A stretch of 33,861 bases of DNA from a virus (lineage: Duplodnaviria > Caudoviricetes): positions 1 through 33,861 of IMG/VR virus record IMGVR_UViG_3300038674_000868; one strand, given 5' to 3'. Positions 10,218-31,202 of this stretch are shown piece by piece. The notes beneath the pieces are model-generated. The model had not been told where the DNA came from, did no database searches, and was given only the letters and a program-made list of their open reading frames with translations. How positions within the stretch are numbered: the stretch's first letter is position 1; each line of letters begins with the position of its first letter. Made by a program: the position numbers and the translations under genes.

Positions 10218-11649
10218 CGTCCTCCTTCGTTTTTGTTTTGCTGGTATTGGGTGCTGCTTCCTGGGGCGTCAGACCTTTTTGCTTACAGTAGGCGACTTCT
10301 ATCGCCCGCTGGTCTAATTCCTGTCGCCAGTCCTTGCCTTGTTTGGCATACTCTTCTGCCAGCGTGGTGGTATTACTGCGCAGGCGTGTCTCCTGGGCAC
10401 TGGATTCTTTGGCCGGGTCGACGTGTTCGCGGCCATCCCAGAACCACTTGTGAGGGTAGGATTGAATGGAACGAATAGACAACGGCAGCGGAGAACCGGC
10501 CAGAATAGCCATATCCAGCCACTGCATCAAAATCGGGTCAAGTATCGTCAGTTCAATGTCACTTCTATCGACATCGATGGTTTTACCGTACATCTGGTAA
10601 TCGAGGCGACCGCTGGCATAGTTGTATTGGGAACTATTGCCGATAGCCACACCCAAGGGAAGATTCATGCAGCGGGCAATCTCATTTAAGATCGAGCGTA
10701 CGAACTCCGCATAGGTGGTGATGGGCTGATTGGCTTCGATTTGGCCGAGTTTCCAGCCCTCCGGCAGCGTGGTAGCCATGCGTTTTTCCAGTTCCACCAC
10801 ATCCAAGGGAGCGATATTAGCCGATTCTGCGTTGGCCGGTGCGTCGGTATAAAGCACCGCTGCAAAATCCGCGGCGGTTTCTGCGGCCGCAATGACCGCT
10901 AAGGTATATCTGCGAAGCTGTGCAAACAGCGGCAGTGCCGGGGTAATCTCCGGAATCCCGCGATTTTGACCGGCCCGGTCCACGCGGTACAGATGCATGA
11001 CATTTTGTGCGGCAACGATGTCGCATCCGGCATTATAAAATTGACTGGCCGAGTACGGATGTTGCTTGAGGATATAGTACAAACTCCGGTTGCCGTAGGC
11101 ATCAAACTCAATCCCATCGGCTTGGTTGGGCGAGGTGATGGAAAGTTTATCCCAGGGGGTTGTCACCTGCTCTGCCTCAACGAGTTTGAGGTCCAGTTTG
11201 ATGGGGCTACGAAGCATGGGATTGTAGGTCTTGATGCAAAAGGTCTCACCATCGACCACACGTGCCATGCGGGCCGTTCTCAACTTAGCCGCAAGTGAAA
11301 TCTCGTCAGCCCAGTCTTTGAACATCTGCTCGATAACTTTATTGACCGCATCATCGGGTAAAAGCATCTGCAGCCGGGGACCGGTTCCAATACAATCATT
11401 GGCCAAGGTCAAAACCATGCCCTTGGCGTAACTGTTATTGGCGACCTCATAGCGGGCACGGTTGCGAAGGGTCGCACGCACCTGCGGACTTGCCGCAAGG
11501 TCCGGACTAAAAGGGTCTGCCATCGCCCAGTGCTTGGCGTTGTCGGTGGAGTTTTGGGCGGCATCGAAGCGTGCGCGGATGCCAAACCGCTGCGGCTTGG
11601 TATCCGAGAGGGTCGTTGCTTGAGATTTTTTCTTGCCAAAACCAAACAT
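10201..11649 (-). CDS. Portal protein, lambda family
   Basis: LRNRARYEVANN, DGE.F, GIEFDAYG, GQ.RGIP, NYASGRLD, VDPAKE motifs. Confidence 0.93.
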   Translation of the reverse strand: MFGFGKKKSQATTLSDTKPQRFGIRARFDAAQNSTDNAKHWAMADPFSPDLAASPQVRATLRNRARYEVANNSYAKGMVLTLANDCIGTGPRLQMLLPDDAVNKVIEQMFKDWADEISLAAKLRTARMARVVDGETFCIKTYNPMLRSPIKLDLKLVEAEQVTTPWDKLSITSPNQADGIEFDAYGNRSLYYILKQHPYSASQFYNAGCDIVAAQNVMHLYRVDRAGQNRGIPEITPALPLFAQLRRYTLAVIAAAETAADFAAVLYTDAPANAESANIAPLDVVELEKRMATTLPEGWKLGQIEANQPITTYAEFVRSILNEIARCMNLPLGVAIGNSSQYNYASGRLDYQMYGKTIDVDRSDIELTILDPILMQWLDMAILAGSPLPLSIRSIQSYPHKWFWDGREHVDPAKESSAQETRLRSNTTTLAEEYAKQGKDWRQELDQRAIEVAYCKQKGLTPQEAAPNTSKTKTKEDDDVQD

Positions 11650-12039: not shown

Positions 12040-12221
12040 CCGTGGCCATTGGCCACTTCGCGTGTGTGGATACGCCTGCCGCAATAGCGGCATTGTTTCA
12101 TGCGCAAAATATAACCGGGTTTGTGGCGGGTATAGAGGGTATAGAAATGCCCGCAACCGCAATCACGACAGACAATACTTTGCGGTGCAGGTTGTTTGGT
12201 TTCATAGGGCTTATTTTTCAC
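12009..12221 (-). CDS. Small zinc-ribbon protein (Ogr/Delta- or NrdR-N-like), putative regulator
   Basis: GTG start at 12221 with GGAG RBS; CxxC...R.KQCxxCG.R..T.E pattern. Confidence 0.7.
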   Translation of the reverse strand: MKNKPYETKQPAPQSIVCRDCGCGHFYTLYTRHKPGYILRMKQCRYCGRRIHTREVANGHGCAARTNRVT

Positions 12222-14490
12222 AACGTCTCCTCTGCTGGATTTCAGATAGTTTGAGAGGCACGCGAGACCTGTGCTGTGAATCAGCGGCAAACAGGACCGC
12301 CCCCTGGATAGAGGCCCCCACCGCACAACCGACGATACAGTCAAGCCAGTGGTTATCCGGACTTCCGGCGCGAATCTTCCATTCATCCACAATGCGTCCA
12401 CGCCCTTCGGTGCGGATACAATATTCGGCCGTCAGGTGCTCAGAAAACAGCTGATGCTGCCGCGAAGTCTTGCCAAACAAGGACAAACATCCCGGATCAC
12501 CCATGGCAACCGACAGTCTGGCCTGGATAAACGACTTCCAGTAGTTGGTGTCAATGAGCACGTGACGAATCGCTCTGCGGTTAATCATACAGGGAATTCG
12601 CCAATGGTGCCCCACGCGGTCCCCCCGTTTTTTAACATATTCGCTAAATGGGATGCTGGATGCCCCAACGAATTTCCCATGGCTGGGTAAAAGCACCGCA
12701 GTGTGAGGACTCTGGCGGCAAAATTTATAGACCACGTCGGTGGACTGTCCCCAGTTGGCATCGATTAAACACCGTTCGATGGTTAAATAAGCGCCGTCAT
12801 CCCGTCGCCATTGCCGGGAAAGATGCAAACTGGTCAATCTGTCCAGCCCTTCGTAGATGATTCCTTCCATACCGGAAGCCGATGAGACGCTTGTCAGTGT
12901 GCGGGTGAGATTTCGCAGCGTAAAATACGGCTGTTTCTGGTCGGGCCATGTACCATAATCAACGATATAGCCCGTAAAGTCATCTTCCCATGCCGCGACC
13001 GCATAAAACAGCGCCTTGCCTTGCACATCGATAAACATCGTCAGGTGATTGCATCCGATGGGTATCTGTCCACGGCTCAATCCATTGAATTTCTCGGCAA
13101 TCTGTTCAGCCGTGAGCAGGTCAGCGTCACCCTGCTGTTCCGGAATCGGCTCATTTTGATATTCTGCAAAAAATGCCGCTTCATCCTGGAGTTTAAGATT
13201 CATCGCATGCTGGATGGCAGACAATTCATCCGTATTATGCCGCTGCGGCCATGCAATGACGGCACCTTCATCCATCGCGGCACGATTTTGCCGATAAAAT
13301 TCCGTCGCTTCGCTGCCGTCGCCATCGTTTTTGAAACTTTCACTGCGGAGCTGGGCATATTTAGACCAAAGGGCTTCATGGATTGGGAACGCATACACCA
13401 TTTTTGTGCGTTCCCCCTGCCATTGCGGGTGTTTGTCGCGGTCCAGTATCTGGTCAGCTAAATCTGCAGGACGAATCACCGTACAGGGCATAATCCCGGA
13501 AATCTTCTGTCCTGGTCCAGCCAGATTTAATATCGCGCCATTGAGTGTCTCCATACGTGCTTTGATTTGGATGGGACTGCGAGCTGATTCATCCGTCTGC
13601 GGGTCATCGATAATCACCAGGGATGGGCGGACGCTTCTACCATCGGCACGTTTGTATTTCATGCCGCGGATTCGTCCTTCGATACCCGCCACACGGATAA
13701 TGGCACCGCTGGCGGCCGAATCCTGAATCGTTGGCATGACGATTTCATCACCAACCCAGTTGATTCGGGTTGGTAATCCATGATAGGTCTGGCCTTTAGC
13801 ACGATTGGCAATCCGTTCCAGGCACTGGATGGGATAAATGGCTTCGGGATAGTCCTCCAACAGCAATTCATTGACCTCGCATTCGGTCCGGATACTATCG
13901 AGCATATTGATGGCATGGTCTTTATCCGAACCCACCAGACACACAAAATCTCTGGCGCCGATCAAAATAGCCCACAGGCAAGCGGTTTCGGCCAGGGTAG
14001 TTTTGCCGCTGCCTCGCGGCATGGCCATAGCAAATAGCCCTCCCCGAAGGACGGCCTGCTCGATTTTAGCTATGATTTTCAGGTGGTCATCGGACCAGGC
14101 CAGCCGAAATGTCTGCGGAAAATACGCTTCACAGAAGAATCGAAAATCACGTGAAGCCCGCTCTTTGCGGTCAGGATTGACCACGGCTGGCAGGTCGCCG
14201 ATGTCCCGTCCGGACGCCGACATCTGGGCAAAGCGGGCCCGCTCCCGTTCTTTCCGGGCTTCATAACCCGTCAGTCCGCCAGATTGAACGGCAGAATATC
14301 TCTGATGCCAGTTTTGCAATAACCACGCCGCATACGCCACCACATTAATGGTACGGCCGTCGCTGACTCGCAATCCTGCCTTGATGACATTTCTGCGCAG
14401 TCGGGCCTCACTGGTCACTTCGCCCAATCGCGTGGAGTTCAGCAGCGCAGCCAACTTCGCTGTTTTGATATGTTTTAAATCAATACTCAT
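12211..14490 (-). CDS. Terminase large subunit (GpA-like) with N-terminal HTH extension
   Basis: Walker A MPRGSGKTT, Walker B VIIDD, nuclease FIDVQ / LIDANWG / NHWLDC; upstream of the portal. Confidence 0.92.
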   Translation of the reverse strand: MSIDLKHIKTAKLAALLNSTRLGEVTSEARLRRNVIKAGLRVSDGRTINVVAYAAWLLQNWHQRYSAVQSGGLTGYEARKERERARFAQMSASGRDIGDLPAVVNPDRKERASRDFRFFCEAYFPQTFRLAWSDDHLKIIAKIEQAVLRGGLFAMAMPRGSGKTTLAETACLWAILIGARDFVCLVGSDKDHAINMLDSIRTECEVNELLLEDYPEAIYPIQCLERIANRAKGQTYHGLPTRINWVGDEIVMPTIQDSAASGAIIRVAGIEGRIRGMKYKRADGRSVRPSLVIIDDPQTDESARSPIQIKARMETLNGAILNLAGPGQKISGIMPCTVIRPADLADQILDRDKHPQWQGERTKMVYAFPIHEALWSKYAQLRSESFKNDGDGSEATEFYRQNRAAMDEGAVIAWPQRHNTDELSAIQHAMNLKLQDEAAFFAEYQNEPIPEQQGDADLLTAEQIAEKFNGLSRGQIPIGCNHLTMFIDVQGKALFYAVAAWEDDFTGYIVDYGTWPDQKQPYFTLRNLTRTLTSVSSASGMEGIIYEGLDRLTSLHLSRQWRRDDGAYLTIERCLIDANWGQSTDVVYKFCRQSPHTAVLLPSHGKFVGASSIPFSEYVKKRGDRVGHHWRIPCMINRRAIRHVLIDTNYWKSFIQARLSVAMGDPGCLSLFGKTSRQHQLFSEHLTAEYCIRTEGRGRIVDEWKIRAGSPDNHWLDCIVGCAVGASIQGAVLFAADSQHRSRVPLKLSEIQQRRRCEK

Positions 14491-14699
14491 CGGGCCTCGT
14501 GATATTCATGTTCCAGCCAGGCTATCAACTCTATCAAATTGACATGGCCGCTTGCAGAGACCGGAACTCCCGCATGGATGGCATCCTCTATCATGGATAT
14601 GGACACCTGTTGAGCGCTTACTGCGCTAAGTAATTTGGCAATCTCGGTAGGTGTCATAGAGGATGGGTTCAATTGTAAATTCGCTTTGTCCATAATCAT
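14487..14699 (-). CDS. Small HTH protein, terminase small subunit-like (70 aa)
   Basis: ATGA-coupled to the terminase; similar to the terminase N-terminus. Confidence 0.7.
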   Translation of the reverse strand: MIMDKANLQLNPSSMTPTEIAKLLSAVSAQQVSISMIEDAIHAGVPVSASGHVNLIELIAWLEHEYHEAR

Positions 14700-14810
14700 G
14701 CAGAAATCTCATGAATTATTAAAAATCTTTCAGTTATTAGCTTGATGTTCTTTGGCATTCTTGGCCTGATCCGATCAACACAAACAATCCATTTTGAAAG
14801 GATAAAAAAG

Positions 14811-15059
14811 ATGAAAACAAACGCCGAACAGATGAAAGACGCATACCAGAATGCCAAACTCGACATCGCCAGCCTGCTGGACCGGATTGGACAAGAATTA
14901 GAAAAGAACCCGGAAAGATTGAATTGGGGACACGTCGGGGATTTGACCGGCCTGCGGCAGAACCTGATTGAAGCCCTTTCGGGAATGACCGGCATGGCTG
15001 AACACGCAATTCGGGAAACCTTAGAAGACATCAGAACCGACGCCCAAAACCAGAAATAA
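14811..15059 (+). CDS. Hypothetical protein (82 aa)
   Basis: AAAGGA RBS, ATG 14811; helical, contains NWGHVGDL. Confidence 0.85.
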   Translation: MKTNAEQMKDAYQNAKLDIASLLDRIGQELEKNPERLNWGHVGDLTGLRQNLIEALSGMTGMAEHAIRETLEDIRTDAQNQK

Positions 15060-15319
15060 GAAAGGACACGACCATGAAAACGAAAGCACGAAGTTTTGAT
15101 TGCAAACGCGGATTTGAAGGCATCGACAAACAAGTCACAGAATTGCGGGTCGAAAAGGATTTTGTTGGCGATAGTTATTCCATCTACAAGGTGACGCCGC
15201 CATGCAATTACCAACTTTTCACATTCGACAACGAAAAGACCGCATGGAATGTTGCCCGGGCGCTGGGCGAGAAATTGGGATTGGAAGTCCGCAGCTAAGA
15301 AAGGAGCACGACCATGAAA
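15057..15319 (+). repeat. Duplicated stop-RBS-start unit TAAGAAAGGA(G)CACGACCATGAAA
   Basis: 15057-15079 and 15296-15319 differ only by one inserted G. Confidence 0.9.
15074..15298 (+). CDS. Hypothetical protein (74 aa)
   Basis: Strong AAAGGA RBS, tight spacing. Confidence 0.8.
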   Translation: MKTKARSFDCKRGFEGIDKQVTELRVEKDFVGDSYSIYKVTPPCNYQLFTFDNEKTAWNVARALGEKLGLEVRS

Positions 15320-15544
15320 GCAAAAAAACAACAACATCCGGCACAGGGCGCAATTAACGACATGGAACATTTGCTGATCGGACTGTGCAAACGAGGCGAG
15401 TATTTCAAAGCGGTATATGTTTTTCAGGCGATGGACATGCTGTGCGATAAATTTAAAGATTACGGCCTGGAAATACCCGAAGACGCCGTGGCGATGAATA
15501 TTTTTCTGGATGAGAAACTCAAATGCGACATCCTGTCGCTTTAA
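15314..15544 (+). CDS. Hypothetical protein (76 aa)
   Basis: Strong AAGGAG RBS. Confidence 0.8.
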   Translation: MKAKKQQHPAQGAINDMEHLLIGLCKRGEYFKAVYVFQAMDMLCDKFKDYGLEIPEDAVAMNIFLDEKLKCDILSL

Positions 15545-15571
15545 TAGACCCATTTTGGAAAGGAAACAGGT

Positions 15572-16039
15572 ATGAAAGACACAGAGATTCGAATCGGAAA
15601 CGTCTACGACATCAAGGTCGGCAGGCACACTACCGCCGTCAGGATTATGCGGCTGGCGGAAAAAGAGGGTTGGGAGGCCGTCTCGCTGGCCAGCGGCAAC
15701 CCCGTCGTTATCCGCTCGGCCCAGCGGATTGTAGGACCGCACAATCCTAAACCTCACCGCAAGAAGAAAGAGGAACAGGCACCAACAGATAAAGACACTC
15801 CCCCGGCCAGGGAACGCAAACTGAGCGGTCTGGATGCCGCAGCGCAGGTGCTGGCCGAGGCCAAAACGCCGATGAACTGCATCGATATGGTCAAGGCCAT
15901 ATTTGACAAGGGGCTGTGGAAAAGCGACGGCAATACCCCGGCCGCGACCATTTATTCGGCCATCATCCGGGAAATCAAGGCAAAAGGCAAGGACTCCCGC
16001 TTTCGCAAGACCAATAAAGGATTGTTCGAAATTGCTTAA
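15572..16039 (+). CDS. Winged-helix (HARE-HTH-like) protein with small N-terminal beta domain
   Basis: LSGLDAAAQVL...PM....M......GLW...G.TPAATIYSAIIREI......SRF.K...GLF. Confidence 0.82.
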   Translation: MKDTEIRIGNVYDIKVGRHTTAVRIMRLAEKEGWEAVSLASGNPVVIRSAQRIVGPHNPKPHRKKKEEQAPTDKDTPPARERKLSGLDAAAQVLAEAKTPMNCIDMVKAIFDKGLWKSDGNTPAATIYSAIIREIKAKGKDSRFRKTNKGLFEIA

Positions 16040-16067
16040 TGACAGATGCTTTATATCCACTTTCCAG

Positions 16068-16099
16068 TCCCCACCTGCCCACGGCGGGGATTTTTGTTT
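16068..16099 (+). terminator. Probable intrinsic terminator of the small-gene cassette
   Basis: TCCCCACC-7nt-GGCGGGGA stem (one mismatch) followed by TTTTTGTTT. Confidence 0.65.
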
Positions 16100-16109
16100 A
16101 AAAATGAGC

Positions 16110-16148
16110 TTGACAGAGGGTATTCCATTGTATATACTATGTATATAC
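16110..16148 (+). promoter_or_regulatory. Sigma70 promoter and tandem operator of the TA operon
   Basis: TTGACA(16110)-17nt-TATACT(16133); palindromic GTATATAC at 16130-16137 and 16141-16148. Confidence 0.88.
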
Positions 16149-16168
16149 GAAATACTGGAGACTTGACT

Positions 16169-16396
16169 ATGGTTAAAAATCTCGTCAAACACGGCAATAG
16201 CTACGCATTGGTTATCGACAAACCCATCATGGAGATGCTGCAGATGACTCCCGATACCGAGGTGGAGTTGACTACCAATGGCGATAAACTGGTTATTTCG
16301 CCTCTGCGTCCCAGCAGCCGACAAGCCAAATTGAACCGAATATTGGACAAAGTCAATCGCGATTTTGGTCCCGCTCTCAAGAAACTTGCCGACTAA
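16169..16396 (+). CDS. AbrB/MazE-family antitoxin (75 aa)
   Basis: GGAG RBS, ATG 16169; KHGNSYALVIDKPI motif; upstream of the toxin. Confidence 0.9.
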   Translation: MVKNLVKHGNSYALVIDKPIMEMLQMTPDTEVELTTNGDKLVISPLRPSSRQAKLNRILDKVNRDFGPALKKLAD

Positions 16397-16399
16397 CCG

Positions 16400-16792
16400 A
16401 TGGACATTGTTTTTCTTGACTTCGATAACGTAGCGGCCATTCATGCGGACCAGATTTCCCGGTACGGAGGCAGTGCCGGACTTCGCAATCAGGGACTTCT
16501 CGAATCGGCAGTCATGATGCCCCAGGCATCCTTTGCCGGCCAGTACGCCCACGAAGATTTGTATATGATGGCAGCGGCATATCTGTATCATATCGCAATG
16601 AATCACCCCTTCGTAGACGGCAATAAACGCACCGGCACCGTGTGTGCCATTGTCTTTTTGGAGCTGAATGGAATTCACGTCAAGCCGGATAATGACGCCC
16701 TGGTTGATTTTGTCCTGGCGGTCGCTCAGGGACAAAAAGACAAAAGCCAGATTGCTGCGTTTTTCAAAGAGCACTCTGAACCACTGCCGTAA
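16400..16792 (+). CDS. doc: Death-on-curing (Doc/Fic) toxin
   Basis: HPFVDGNKRTG motif, G.R..GLLESA, 130 aa. Confidence 0.92.
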   Translation: MDIVFLDFDNVAAIHADQISRYGGSAGLRNQGLLESAVMMPQASFAGQYAHEDLYMMAAAYLYHIAMNHPFVDGNKRTGTVCAIVFLELNGIHVKPDNDALVDFVLAVAQGQKDKSQIAAFFKEHSEPLP

Positions 16793-16850
16793 TGCAGGAC
16801 ACTCTCTATTCGGTCTATTTTTATTCCGTAAAGCTGTCATGGGATAATCC

Positions 16851-17684
16851 TCAAACCACCGCTTGTTCAAGGGTGGTTTTTTCTGTTGGCGGATTCACAT
16901 CATCAAATAACATGCTCTGCTCCGGCGTCTTTTGCCGGAGGTTGGAAGCCGGCCGCCGGTGGCTCGAAAAAGCGGACTGCCGGAACTGCCCCGACCTCTC
17001 GACCCTGGGTAGGTCGCGGGTCTCTCTTGACCCCTCGCCCGCATCAATCTGCCAAATCAAATCCGGATGTTTGGGATACCGGGTTGTCCACTGGACGGTA
17101 CTTTCACGCAGCAGTTCCTTGCGGCGTTTGTGACTGCACAAAAAGGTACAATACCGAAATTGTCTGCCGCGAACACGCTTGAGTTTCAATCCCCGCCAGA
17201 CTTCCTTGCTGCGACTTCCAAAGCGGGTAATCATCAATCGCGGATGGACCGGTTCATGGTCGCTAGTCAGGTAAATCTCGGTGGTGATAAAGCCGCCATA
17301 GAGCCAGTTGGCGGCCTGATAGACATAGCCGGGTTTTCCACGAATCCCATCAGCCCAGGTAAAAAGCACCTGTTTATCCGGCTGGTTATCTTTAAACCAC
17401 TGGACACAGCCTGCAATCATCTGGCTTTCGGTATTGCGAGGTAAATCATCCCGACAGCACATCCGGCACAATTCCCAGTAATCTTTGGTATCCAGTGACG
17501 GAAACAGTCTCTGTATGGTATGCCTTGGCCGTGTCCCCCATCCCCAGATGGCTATTCCAGCCAGACCCTGGCCGTCATAAAATCCCAGCGACACCATACA
17601 GTGCGGCGGGAAGATATCGCTGTAATGCCACTTTCGGCACAGATTCTTGGCGGCTTCTAAGGGAACAAGGGACACGGGAATCAT
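16851..17684 (-). CDS. Mom-like GNAT-fold DNA modification protein
   Basis: WHYS, WELCRM....PRNTES, TWAD...G..GYVYQAANW.Y.G motifs; ATGA-coupled to the MTase. Confidence 0.8.
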   Translation of the reverse strand: MIPVSLVPLEAAKNLCRKWHYSDIFPPHCMVSLGFYDGQGLAGIAIWGWGTRPRHTIQRLFPSLDTKDYWELCRMCCRDDLPRNTESQMIAGCVQWFKDNQPDKQVLFTWADGIRGKPGYVYQAANWLYGGFITTEIYLTSDHEPVHPRLMITRFGSRSKEVWRGLKLKRVRGRQFRYCTFLCSHKRRKELLRESTVQWTTRYPKHPDLIWQIDAGEGSRETRDLPRVERSGQFRQSAFSSHRRPASNLRQKTPEQSMLFDDVNPPTEKTTLEQAVV

Positions 17685-18976
17685 TCAGCTTTCTCCAGCA
17701 TAGCCTTTTTGCCGGTGAATTTCTCCCAGCGCTGCACAATGACGTCACAGTACGGCGGGTCCAGTTCCATCAGGAATGCCTTGCGGCCAGTCTGCTCGGC
17801 GGCGATGAGTGTCGAACCGCTGCCCCCAAAGAGGTCCAGCACGTTTTCACCGACCTGCGAGGAATACTGCATGGCCCGCACCGCCAGTTCCACCGGCTTT
17901 TCGGTTAAATGAATCATGCTTTGCGGATTGACCTTTTTGACACTCCAAACATCGGTAATGTTGGCCGGACCAAAGAACAGGTGTGCAGCGCCTTCCGACC
18001 AGCCGTAAAAACACCATTCGTGGTTACCCATAAAGTCTTTGCGGGTCAGGACGGGGTGCTCCTTGACCCAGATAATCATTTGCGAAAAATACAGTTCGCA
18101 TTCCTTCAGCACATTGGGGTAGTTGTAGATATTACTGTAGCCGCCCCAGATATAATAAGACCGGCCGGGTATCAGGACGCGTTTAATATTGCCGAACCAT
18201 GCCTGCAGGAGCTTGACAAACTCCTGGTCTGACACAAAGTCATTGGCCAGCGGCCGGTCTTTGGGGCGCATCTTGTCAGTGGTTTTGTGGGCCTTGCCCT
18301 GAATGGCTTCGTCCATCCCTTGCTGGCCGGTGTAGTTATCCGAGGCAGCCGCGGCCGCACGGGCGTTTTGACTGCGGGGTGCGACACAGACATTGTACGG
18401 AGGGTCGGTATTGACCAGATGAATCGGCTGGCCATTGAGCAGTTTATCCAAATCAGCGGCACTTCCGCTGTCACCGCACATCAGCCGGTGATTACCCAGT
18501 ATCCAGATGTCACCTCGTTTGGTCGTGGGTTCATCAGGCGGTAGCGGCACATCATCCGGGTCAGTCAAGCCGTCCTTGACCTCCTGTTCGAGGAGTTTGC
18601 CCAGTTCTTCCTGGTCAAATCCCAGCAGGTCGAGGTCAAATTCCATGCCCGCAAGGTCTTTGAGCTCAATCGGCAGCAATTCATAGTTCCAGTCGGCCAG
18701 CGTTGCGGTCTGGTTATCCGCGATGCGATAGGCTTTTATCTGGGCATCGGTCAAGTCTTTGGCAACATGGACGGGGACCTTTTCAAGGCCAAGTTTAACG
18801 GCCGCCTTGTAGCGGGTATGGCCGACGATAATAATGCCGTCTTTATCGACCACAATCGGCTGGCGGAAGCCAAATTCCTTCAAACTGGCCGCCACCGCAT
18901 CGACGGCCTTGTCGTTGATACGGGGATTGTTGTCATACGGGAAAATGGTGTCGATACTGCGAAGTTCTATACGCAT
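17681..18976 (-). CDS. ParB-N domain + N6A/N4C DNA methyltransferase
   Basis: Y.NNPR, FGFRQPIVVD, GHTR; HRLMCGDS, TDPPY, H.TEKP, DLFGGSGST, ELDPPYCDVI. Confidence 0.95.
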   Translation of the reverse strand: MRIELRSIDTIFPYDNNPRINDKAVDAVAASLKEFGFRQPIVVDKDGIIIVGHTRYKAAVKLGLEKVPVHVAKDLTDAQIKAYRIADNQTATLADWNYELLPIELKDLAGMEFDLDLLGFDQEELGKLLEQEVKDGLTDPDDVPLPPDEPTTKRGDIWILGNHRLMCGDSGSAADLDKLLNGQPIHLVNTDPPYNVCVAPRSQNARAAAAASDNYTGQQGMDEAIQGKAHKTTDKMRPKDRPLANDFVSDQEFVKLLQAWFGNIKRVLIPGRSYYIWGGYSNIYNYPNVLKECELYFSQMIIWVKEHPVLTRKDFMGNHEWCFYGWSEGAAHLFFGPANITDVWSVKKVNPQSMIHLTEKPVELAVRAMQYSSQVGENVLDLFGGSGSTLIAAEQTGRKAFLMELDPPYCDVIVQRWEKFTGKKAMLEKAE

Positions 18977-25481: not shown

Positions 25482-25627
25482 AATTATCCTCAAATAAAGT
25501 TTCTGTTAATGGTTTTGTTCCAAAAATAGCCGGCCAGCTAAAAGCAGGTGCCGGTTTAAACCGGCCCTGCCTGAAGAGTCCGCACGTCACATGTATTGCC
25601 GAACTGATCGAAGAGAGATGTGTCCCT

Positions 25628-29861: not shown

Positions 29862-31202
29862 AGGTTCTCATCCAAAATAGTTGGTAAAAAGTAGTGGACA
29901 TTATGCAGTCTTTCGGTATGTAAGCTTTTGGTCAAAAAGAACTTGCATTTTGAAAGGCAACGCACAATGTCCGGTCTTAGTATAACAGGATATTATCCAT
30001 TTAAGCGAATGAAAATTAGGGAACAAAATATTCATCGTGCCGATACGACCTCGGCGCTGCTCCGCATGATGCCGGACTTGCGTTATCGCCCCCTGTGCCA
30101 CGACTGCGGATCGCCGGCCCAGACGGTTCATTCGCGGGGTCATCGGCGTTATCTGCGGGACCTGAATCTGGCCGATGCCCAGGTCTGGCTGGAGGTGGAA
30201 TACCGGAAAATCTGGTGTCCCGACTGCGGGGGGGTGCGGGTCGAACGACTGGACTTTGCCGATGCGTCCAAACGGGTCACTCATCGGTTGGCCCGGTATG
30301 TGCACGACCTGTGTCAATGGATGACTGTTCAGGACGTAGCCGAGCATTTGGACCTGGACCCCAAGACGGTCAAGGCGATTGATAAGTCCTTTTTGCAGGA
30401 GCAGTTCGGGCAAACGGACGCCGGAAACCTGCGGATTTTGGCGATGGATGAGATTGCCATTCGCAAGGGACATCAGTACATGACGGTGGTGATGGATTAT
30501 TTGACCGGTCGGGTGGTCTGGATGGGTCTCAATCGCAACAAGGAAACGCTGGATCAATTTTTTGCTGAACTGACGGAGACACAAAAACAAGGCATTGAAG
30601 CGGTGGCGATGGATATGTGGGAACCCTTCATTAATCGGGTCCAGCATCACTGTCCAAAGGCCCATATCGTCTTTGACTTTTTTCATGTGGTGCAGGCCTT
30701 CGGAAAAGTGATCGATACGGTTCGTCGGGATGAATACCGCAAGGCCACCCGACAGGACAAGAACGTGCTCAAGGGCAGCCGCTATCTGCTGCTCAGGAAC
30801 GCCGAGAACCTCACGGATGAGCAGGCCAATCGCCTTGAAGAGGTTCTGGCTTTGAATGAAACCCTCAGTGTCCTGTATGTGCTTAAAGACCAGTTGAAAA
30901 TGGTGTATTATTACAGCGACCGCCGGAAAGTCAAAACAACGCTGGACAGCTGGTGTCGCATGGCCGAAACAATAGACCATCCCGATGTGCGGCGGTTTGT
31001 GGGACGTCTGCGGTTCTTTCAATACGGTATCCTGAACCATGCAGATTATCCGATTGGCACCAGCGAACTGGAAGGCGCCAATAATAAAATCAAGGTCATC
31101 AAACGTAAAGCGTATGGGTTTCATGATACCGACTATTTCGTGCTCAAGGTCAAACAGGCCTTCGTGGCTTAATAAAATAACCAACTTTTTGGGAGTTGAA
31201 CC
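29862..31202 (+). mobile_element. ISL3 family insertion sequence (1341 bp)
   Basis: IRs GGTTCTCATCCAAAATAGTTGGT / GGTTCAACTCCCAAAAAGTTGGT (18/23); flanks TGATTTA / TGATTTTA. Confidence 0.92.
29967..31172 (+). CDS. ISL3 transposase
   Basis: Zn finger CHDC/CPDC, MDE, MDMW, FD.FHVV, EG.NNKIKVIKR.AYGF. Confidence 0.96.
   Translation: MSGLSITGYYPFKRMKIREQNIHRADTTSALLRMMPDLRYRPLCHDCGSPAQTVHSRGHRRYLRDLNLADAQVWLEVEYRKIWCPDCGGVRVERLDFADASKRVTHRLARYVHDLCQWMTVQDVAEHLDLDPKTVKAIDKSFLQEQFGQTDAGNLRILAMDEIAIRKGHQYMTVVMDYLTGRVVWMGLNRNKETLDQFFAELTETQKQGIEAVAMDMWEPFINRVQHHCPKAHIVFDFFHVVQAFGKVIDTVRRDEYRKATRQDKNVLKGSRYLLLRNAENLTDEQANRLEEVLALNETLSVLYVLKDQLKMVYYYSDRRKVKTTLDSWCRMAETIDHPDVRRFVGRLRFFQYGILNHADYPIGTSELEGANNKIKVIKRKAYGFHDTDYFVLKVKQAFVA

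Follow-up and report, generated by a model that had tools for sequence, protein, structure and literature searches.

Narnaviruses carry a reverse open reading frame (ORF), a long stop-free frame that lies antisense to a real coding sequence, avoids the codons UUA, CUA and UCA and is poorly conserved as protein, and it has been proposed that the act of translating it is what matters (Retallack et al., 2021, PMC8316113; DeRisi et al., 10.1101/761890). In bacteria, noncontiguous operons or excludons consist of co-directional genes interrupted by opposite-strand genes with their own promoters, and they are known in phage 80alpha and for toxin-antitoxin genes (Iturbe et al., 2024, PMC11034616; Rostol et al., 2024, PMC11087260). 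Here we describe a locus with likenesses to both in the virus record IMGVR_UViG_3300038674_000868 (Duplodnaviria; Caudoviricetes), whose 33,861 nucleotides (nt) are referred to as the window. Its minus strand carries a 714-codon ORF, here called the bridge, that runs antisense to an inverted cassette of six genes and links DNA modification genes to the terminase genes. A sequence-only reading of the window had proposed that this frame is kept for translation itself rather than for its product, and comparison with related prophages supports that proposal, which now rests on recurring open frames, spacers in multiples of three (3n), coupled ends and an apparently unconstrained protein.

By analogy, the bridge appears to work like the narnavirus reverse ORF and yet is not a member of that class. 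Both have a codon-aligned antisense frame, which here is in register with five of the six window genes and with 114 of the 123 cassette ORFs in relatives that have a strong Shine-Dalgarno (SD) motif; both avoid the three codons, and in both the reverse product is the less conserved one. The narnavirus frame belongs to a eukaryotic RNA virus with one gene per segment, lies opposite an RdRp gene over the full segment and has both strands present as separate RNAs (PMC8316113; 10.1101/761890), whereas the bridge lies in a double-stranded DNA prophage with terminase, portal, capsid and recombinase genes, crosses exchangeable genes, spacers, promoters and terminators, and is operon-coupled at both ends. 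With noncontiguous operons the window shares the interrupted layout, which is conserved in relatives, and a promoter match in the cassette. The S. aureus paper, in its available portion, takes the interrupted stretch as untranslated, attributes read-through to the uncoupling of transcription and translation in Gram-positives and describes no ORF that spans the stretch. A spanning ORF is the feature of the bridge family, for which we infer co-transcription. Lambdoid phages face the same problem of a lytic transcript that must pass through backward genes, and their N/Q antitermination relies on a modified polymerase that carries the transcript across antisense morons, whereas the bridge would rely on a translated frame. 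No antiterminator was named in Pfam and PHROG scans of the window's main genes, which were not searches aimed at antiterminators. Long antisense overlapping genes of Pseudomonas aeruginosa, reportedly named olg1 and olg2, are likewise long antisense ORFs in bacteria. They lie within single genes and are reported to be under purifying selection as proteins (PMC8850804), whereas the bridge spans several genes without protein constraint. Literature searches, whose coverage largely excluded subscription journals, found no bacterial arrangement of the bridge kind and turned up only unrelated or single-gene cases.

The minus-strand frame between 14696 and 16840 contains no stop, as first read, and encodes 714 amino acids (aa) from the ATG at 16840 or 724 aa from a TTG at 16870. 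Cassette genes 2 to 6 lie in codon register with it, and the spacers of 15, 27, 129 and 3 nt between them are all multiples of three, as had been pointed out; gene 1 is out of register and separated from gene 2 by 14 nt. None of the 42 Leu and 22 Ser codons in the five in-register genes is TTA, CTA or TCA, whereas phage codon usage predicts 8.8 (P = 7e-5, a calculation that the sequence-only reading had called for) and the usage of 72 genes of genome G001 predicts 5.5 (P = 3e-3). Gene 1 holds TTA twice, which indicates that the codon is not banned as such, and the bridge frame over this gene is nevertheless stop-free (P = 0.02). In 4001 shuffles of the AT-rich non-coding parts of the span, stops averaged 7.1 and no shuffle was free of them. 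Multiplied by hand, these probabilities put the combined chance of the open frame below 1e-7. The caveat that shadow ORFs are common holds for single genes, since 1 of 30 host genes of 400 or more codons has none of the three codons and the transposase gene of an ISL3 element in the window also has a shadow, but the bridge exceeds what codon bias predicts: the ORF is real and not a codon-bias shadow. A first cassette gene out of register, with the bridge frame open over it anyway, also occurs in L002, L003, L083, L365 and L367.

The related loci were the top 80 among 251 viral loci, the top 80 among 575 genome loci and 5 more found by the HARE-HTH gene, for a total of 166 with the window. Those with a methylase and a terL start were usable (106), 56 having no methylase in the stretch and 4 no terL start; de-replication at 50% left 36 gaps, and equal-length antisense windows over the structural genes of the same loci (33 loci) served as controls. 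The order methylase, inverted HARE-HTH cassette, small gene and terL is general among the relatives, in which the small gene sits directly before terL and the HARE-HTH gene is present at 35 of 36 de-replicated loci. The cassettes vary in size (0.6-4.8 kb) and content (DUF6900, DUF7678, amidoligase, Fic and many unknowns). The term island, used at first, is too weak: although its genes vary, the inverted cassette itself is a constant part of phages in this family. A single frame is open over at least 90% of the gap at 83 of the 106 loci and, after de-replication, in 22 of 36 gaps, compared with 2.2 of 33 expected from the control windows. The bridge reaches 1437 aa at a GC content of 0.55 in L089, and 927 aa at 0.42 in L002, where it crosses a 403-aa Fic gene. 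All but two of the gaps (34/36) are crossed by at most four coupled ORFs, and in such relays a bridge often comes after a genuine sense gene (DUF1937, PAPS reductase). At L037 (3851-5017), a DUF1937 protein lacks its own stop and continues as the first half of the bridge.

Toxin genes like that of the window behave in the same manner. Doc homologues were found at 22 loci from 21 of 301 genomes, and five of these beside HARE-HTH and methylase genes (L340-L344, with three distinct doc sequences) have antisense runs of 1359-1878 nt, compared with 66-792 nt for most free-standing doc genes. Among five further Planctomycete loci with methylase, doc, mazE, HARE-HTH and terL, a full bridge is present in L364, L365 and L367. 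The expectation that related prophages with other cargo would keep the open frame and 3n spacers is borne out by the 83 loci above and by indels that are multiples of three in 219 of 228 cases, but not at L360 and L362, which are unbridged.

Signs of selection on openness come from the codons and indels of these relatives. HARE-HTH genes of the 35 de-replicated loci contain a single TTA, CTA or TCA, whereas 33.5 would be expected from their own terL and methylase genes, and ATA, GTA, ACA, CCA, CTT and similar A/T-ending codons are not depleted. Net indels between related gaps, counted without requiring a bridge, are 3n in the 219 of 228 cases already cited compared with 14 of 69 upstream of the methylase; the proportion is 28 of 34 in the last 250 nt of the gaps, which form an AT-rich promoter zone, and 79 of 81 in a count conditioned on both loci having a bridge. 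Whole-gene gains and losses in the cassette are also 3n and keep the frame. Register 0 would be favored because only there can synonymous changes clear every antisense stop, a property set out for narnaviruses (10.1101/761890). Selection for an open frame is strongly supported by these comparative data.

A neutral explanation would have GC bias at third codon positions remove TTA, CTA and TCA while cassette genes swap at a repeated motif of ribosome-binding site (RBS) and spacer, with register kept by luck. It can draw on the fact that most relatives are 60-70% GC, that control windows are sometimes open (up to 47% in L006), that the ISL3 gene has its own shadow ORF and that spacers share GAAAGG...CACGACC-ATG. 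However, the controls of each locus are exceeded about tenfold, the depletion is limited to three codons, low-GC cases hold (the window, L002 and L003), no such pattern appears in DUF3489 phages of equal GC richness, the AT-rich promoter zones lack stops and have the 3n indels given above, and the starts of open frames sit at -4. This explanation is largely refuted, and we regard it as the least credible of those considered here. The shared motif recurs in the window at 14789-14810, 15060-15073, 15299-15313 and 15550-15571, and it is a possible recombination site at which cassette genes are swapped.

If the frame is selected, its protein could be the reason, and a proper start, an SD motif and operon coupling are what a functional gene would have. 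In the same direction, the open frame of L037 has a real DUF1937 domain as its N-terminus, and synonymous divergence in HARE-HTH genes (0.19) is below that of terL (0.29). The evolution of the product argues otherwise. Across 52 pairs, dN/dS in the bridge frame is 1.07 with no third-position excess in the promoter zone, which has no coding sequence on its opposite strand. Under HARE-HTH it is 1.94, while the sense gene has 0.16; the shadow of terL, used as a control, is similar at 2.6. The length ranges from 172 to 1437 aa and tracks the cargo, and neither the N- nor the C-termini share sequence. In keeping with the first impression that the protein is not of a folded family, the product has no Pfam or PHROG match, its best score in the Atlas (0.83) is below the bar, and none of 7993 candidates (392-1250 aa) from a 5.8-billion protein collection reached E<=0.001, a weak blank given that gene callers rarely call such frames. 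Among the strain variants listed from 8 runs, one main variant differs in the ORF by 15 substitutions and a deletion of 3 nt, and there is one extra substitution; 11 of the 15 substitutions in this near-identical strain alter the bridge protein, and 0 of 16 creates a bridge stop, which is uninformative since only about 3% of substitutions would do so. A functional protein is thus very improbable, and the product is probably junk that is degraded.

Both ends of the bridge are arranged as in an operon. In the window, TTTGAGGAT occurs twice, at 16847-16855 over the Mom stop, 10 nt ahead of the bridge ATG, and at 25486-25494 ahead of an AAA ATPase gene, whereas chance would give a mean of 0.30 occurrences; the resemblance to the ATPase RBS that had been reported thus holds at both sites, and 16841..16855 on the minus strand is likely a re-initiation site. 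At the other end, the bridge stop overlaps the small-gene ATG at 14699 (ATGA), with another ATG at 14693, and the small gene overlaps terL by 4 nt and has no SD motif, just as first described. Among the 83 loci with an open frame, the bridge starts at -4 to the upstream stop in 63 and has an SD motif in 64, and it stops at -4 to the small-gene start in 57 and at +4 in 8; the corresponding counts for 21 de-replicated loci are 12, 11, 8 and 5. For an ORF that is coupled at both start and stop, keeps a protected frame and has an unconstrained product, selection on being translated is, with high confidence from comparative evidence, the best explanation.

What translation achieves may be no more than coupling, in which case the bridge would be a ribosome conveyor that sets the level or timing of the small gene and terL without a role for the termination factor Rho. 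The tight stop-start geometry at both bridge ends fits this idea, as do several loci at which the small gene has no SD motif and starts 4 nt past the bridge stop; the small gene of the window has no SD motif either. However, at many -4 loci a strong SD stands before the small gene itself, which is far cheaper than 700 junk codons, and L002 and L003 leave 50 nt untranslated except for mini-ORFs. Pure coupling is therefore unlikely.

The favored reading adds protection of the transcript. In Escherichia coli, untranslated antisense RNA is a target of Rho, and trailing ribosomes suppress polarity. Because of these properties, we consider it fairly probable that the bridge carries the late transcript through the cassette, shielded from Rho, and delivers ribosomes to the packaging genes. 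In such a scheme, a transcript from the upstream methylase genes would run through the cassette into the packaging genes, and ribosomes ending Mom (or the methylase) would re-initiate on the bridge and keep Rho off 1-4 kb of otherwise naked, pyrimidine-rich antisense RNA. Having reached the bridge stop, these ribosomes would start again on the small gene and terL. The phage would accept new cargo only where it lies in register, with 3n spacers, where synonymous Leu and Ser changes can remove all stops. In 36 of 36 gaps, pyrimidine content is higher on the bridged strand than in terL, and Rho is present in all nine Planctomycete genomes checked (4/4 and 5/5). Besides the main Rho, G001, G003, G028, G046 and G066 have a second, weaker Rho-like match (372-478 bits), some with stops. 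The sequence-only reading had combined a frame kept for translation with avoidance of Rho polarity, coupling of terminase synthesis and silencing of the island. It is partly supported: the comparative tests favor the frame kept for translation, and the hosts checked have Rho, but two prophages of the family do without a bridge. Silencing of the toxin-antitoxin pair by the transcript is plausible by analogy with the S. aureus work (PMC11087260).

Ribosome cover could instead guard the late RNA from pairing with cassette RNA and from RNase III/E, or help late polymerase to win head-on collisions, leaving the cassette and its toxin-antitoxin pair off. In favor, the cassette is served by promoters and RBSs of its own on the opposite strand, and overlap of this kind causes mutual exclusion in noncontiguous operons of S. 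aureus phages (PMC11087260). Ribosome protection is also a model offered for narnavirus reverse ORFs (PMC8316113). This alternative predicts the exact 3' coupling no better than the Rho shield does, and we judge it to be quite unlikely. It and pure coupling are the main rivals, and both may act together with the Rho shield.

Several observations weigh against the Rho shield or the generality of the bridge. In the window, the bridge ATG lies 10 nt past the Mom stop, and its 4-nt SD is at the arm of a hairpin. This hairpin, at 16855..16880, is likely where the cassette transcript terminates; read on the minus strand, it has a 3' arm that extends into the bridge SD. C-over-G skew, which is typical of Rho sites, is above that of terL in only 21 of 36 gaps, and a single frame is less than 90% open in 14 of 36. 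At L001-L003, the bridge stops 50-83 nt short of the small gene and is linked to it by mini-ORFs only. Two of these loci, the window's closest relatives, have mini-ORFs of 23 and 12 codons that relay the bridge stop to the small gene (L001 4925-4996, L002 5763-5801). Prophages of the DUF3489 type, known from AcaML1 (JX507079) and Ralstonia phage YO164_3, have methylases, an inverted cassette of small genes (DUF3489), terS and a gpA-type terL, which is the layout of the bridged family, and yet none of 80 usable loci (from 162; beyond the two named phages we infer the hosts) has a frame open by more than 90%. They also differ in codons and spacing: TTA, CTA and TCA are not depleted in DUF3489 genes (18 vs 13.1 expected in 9 clusters, 29 vs 21.4 in 20 clusters), 12 coupled ORFs do not suffice to cross 49 of 80 gaps, and spacers are not 3n, with indels that are 3n in 70 of 165 cases. 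These loci are unbridged; therefore, an inverted cassette in a GC-rich phage is not enough to yield a bridge.

Within the bridged family itself, L360 (in G046) and L362 (in G056) have no bridge, although the order of their genes is the same, terL is uninterrupted and the host carries Rho. The three frames contain 91/72/79 stops in L360 and 23/26/16 in L362, a second copy in G046 is also without a long frame, and promoter scans of L360 and L362 showed no clear replacement promoter. In L360 (~10480-10640), the small gene is immediately preceded by a strong SD and a pair of AGAAACTGTCA..TGACAGTT palindromes, which may make up a regulated promoter region that was acquired. In L362 (6706-7959), doc, mazE and HARE-HTH are still in one frame; the register frame has 4 stops over these genes, and the promoter zone has many more, which may represent a decaying bridge. 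A quick TerL tree with no root test, in which relay loci were labelled bridged, places the two loci separately among bridged ones, which suggests bridge losses. Because these two intact-looking prophages lack it, the bridge is not indispensable everywhere.

The features of the locus are collected in Table 1. Nearly all genes of the window are on its minus strand, in the order DUF2924 and serine recombinase, then replication, methylase and Mom, and then terminase, portal and capsid; the identified exceptions are the inverted cassette and the ISL3 element. Its succession of methylase, Mom, inverted cassette, small gene and terL is that of a Planctomycetota-type prophage, and the host is presumably a Planctomycete, because the best TerL relatives sit mostly in records named Planctomycetota. 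In L086 (Anaerohalosphaeraceae), TerL is 100% identical to that of the window, and the cassette differs by 15 bases and a 3-nt gap. No sigma-70 match was found on the minus strand within 14300-17300, which is a weak test for a Planctomycete. Motifs similar to CTTGA...TGATC of the cassette leader were seen by eye in L044, L083 and L089; a regular expression for a shared cassette promoter matched in only 6 of 36 loci, and its match in the window is not the one identified by eye. Several cassette genes of L089 (1492-5805, bridged) and L166 (6400-7140, unbridged) are preceded by copies of a promoter-like motif, CTTG..N..TCATG/TCATA.

Table 1. Coordinates of the bridge, the inverted cassette and flanking genes in the window
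Feature	Position	Strand	Basis or remark
Terminase large subunit (terL), gpA type	12211..14490	-	PF20454, phrog_38, phrog_15
70-aa gene before terL (small gene), small-terminase-like by position	14487..14699	-	Overlaps bridge stop and terL, each by ATGA
Bridge ORF (714 codons) opposite six genes; matches no known family	14696..16840	-	Open in relatives
Cassette leader, candidate CTTGA...TGATC promoter-like motif and RBS	14737..14810	+	Motif read by eye
Cassette gene 1, 82 aa, out of register, 2 TTA codons	14811..15059	+	phrog_14596 (unknown)
Cassette gene 2 (unknown), 74 aa, in register, no TTA/CTA/TCA	15074..15298	+	Codon count
Cassette gene 3 (unknown), 76 aa, in register, no TTA/CTA/TCA	15314..15544	+	Codon count
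HARE-HTH gene, conserved cassette core, in register	15572..16039	+	PF05066, E 1e-11
Hairpin resembling a terminator (16074-16088), and sigma-70-like promoter (16110-16138) for the toxin-antitoxin pair	16074..16138	+	Crossed by bridge
MazE/AbrB-type antitoxin, in register	16169..16396	+	PF04014
Doc-type (Fic) toxin of bacterial toxin-antitoxin pair, in register	16400..16792	+	PF02661, phrog_577
SD-like GAGG over Mom stop codon and spacer to bridge ATG	16841..16855	-	Relatives mostly -4 overlap and SD motif
Mom-like DNA modification gene; last sense gene ahead of bridge	16851..17684	-	PF25680, E 3e-46; phrog_1384
Hairpin in mom 3' end, T tract on + strand	16855..16880		Fold z about -2 (+) and -1.3 (-), modest
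ParB-N / N6-N4 DNA methyltransferase	17681..18976	-	Pfam/PHROG profiles; upstream anchor in relatives

The description of the 70-aa gene as small-terminase-like follows its position before terL and a weak structural likeness. It has no Pfam or PHROG match, its Atlas clusters are unnamed and mostly viral, and it resembles (TM 0.63) a cluster with 13% DUF1441. In several relatives, the small gene also resembles the N-terminal 60-70 residues of TerL (14300-14490 in the window; 25-32% identity, Atlas TM 0.72), which suggests a duplicated helix-turn-helix. The ISL3 element (~29863-31202; transposase 29928-31172 on the plus strand) is flanked by a TAAAATCA target duplication and is missing from the G001 copy. 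A 427-codon frame (29901-31184) runs antisense to its transposase, with no TTA, CTA or TCA in 413 codons. We rejected this shadow ORF as a second bridge, since the G001 copy lacks the element, a target duplication flanks it and it lies upstream of a promoter-like site.

Iturbe et al. ask how a transcript can get across an antisense gene that is not translated, and give an answer only for Gram-positives with uncoupled transcription (PMC11034616). The bridge offers a possible answer for Rho-bearing hosts. We lean toward the broader proposal that this prophage family uses a translated, sequence-free ribosome bridge that replaces antitermination and also acts as a cargo filter, which would make it a modular bacterial counterpart of ambigrammatic coding, rebuilt over each new cargo. 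If this is true, an ORF whose sole job is to be translated makes a noncontiguous operon continuous, and a design rule is suggested by which backward genes could be placed inside operons without polarity. A long antisense ORF, which annotation normally drops as a shadow, can apparently be under strong selection without selection on its protein. For these phages, the capture of cargo would gain a constraint of register and codon purge, and the bridge would serve as an admission filter through which toxin-antitoxin and Fic cargo is kept only in register and stripped of three codons.

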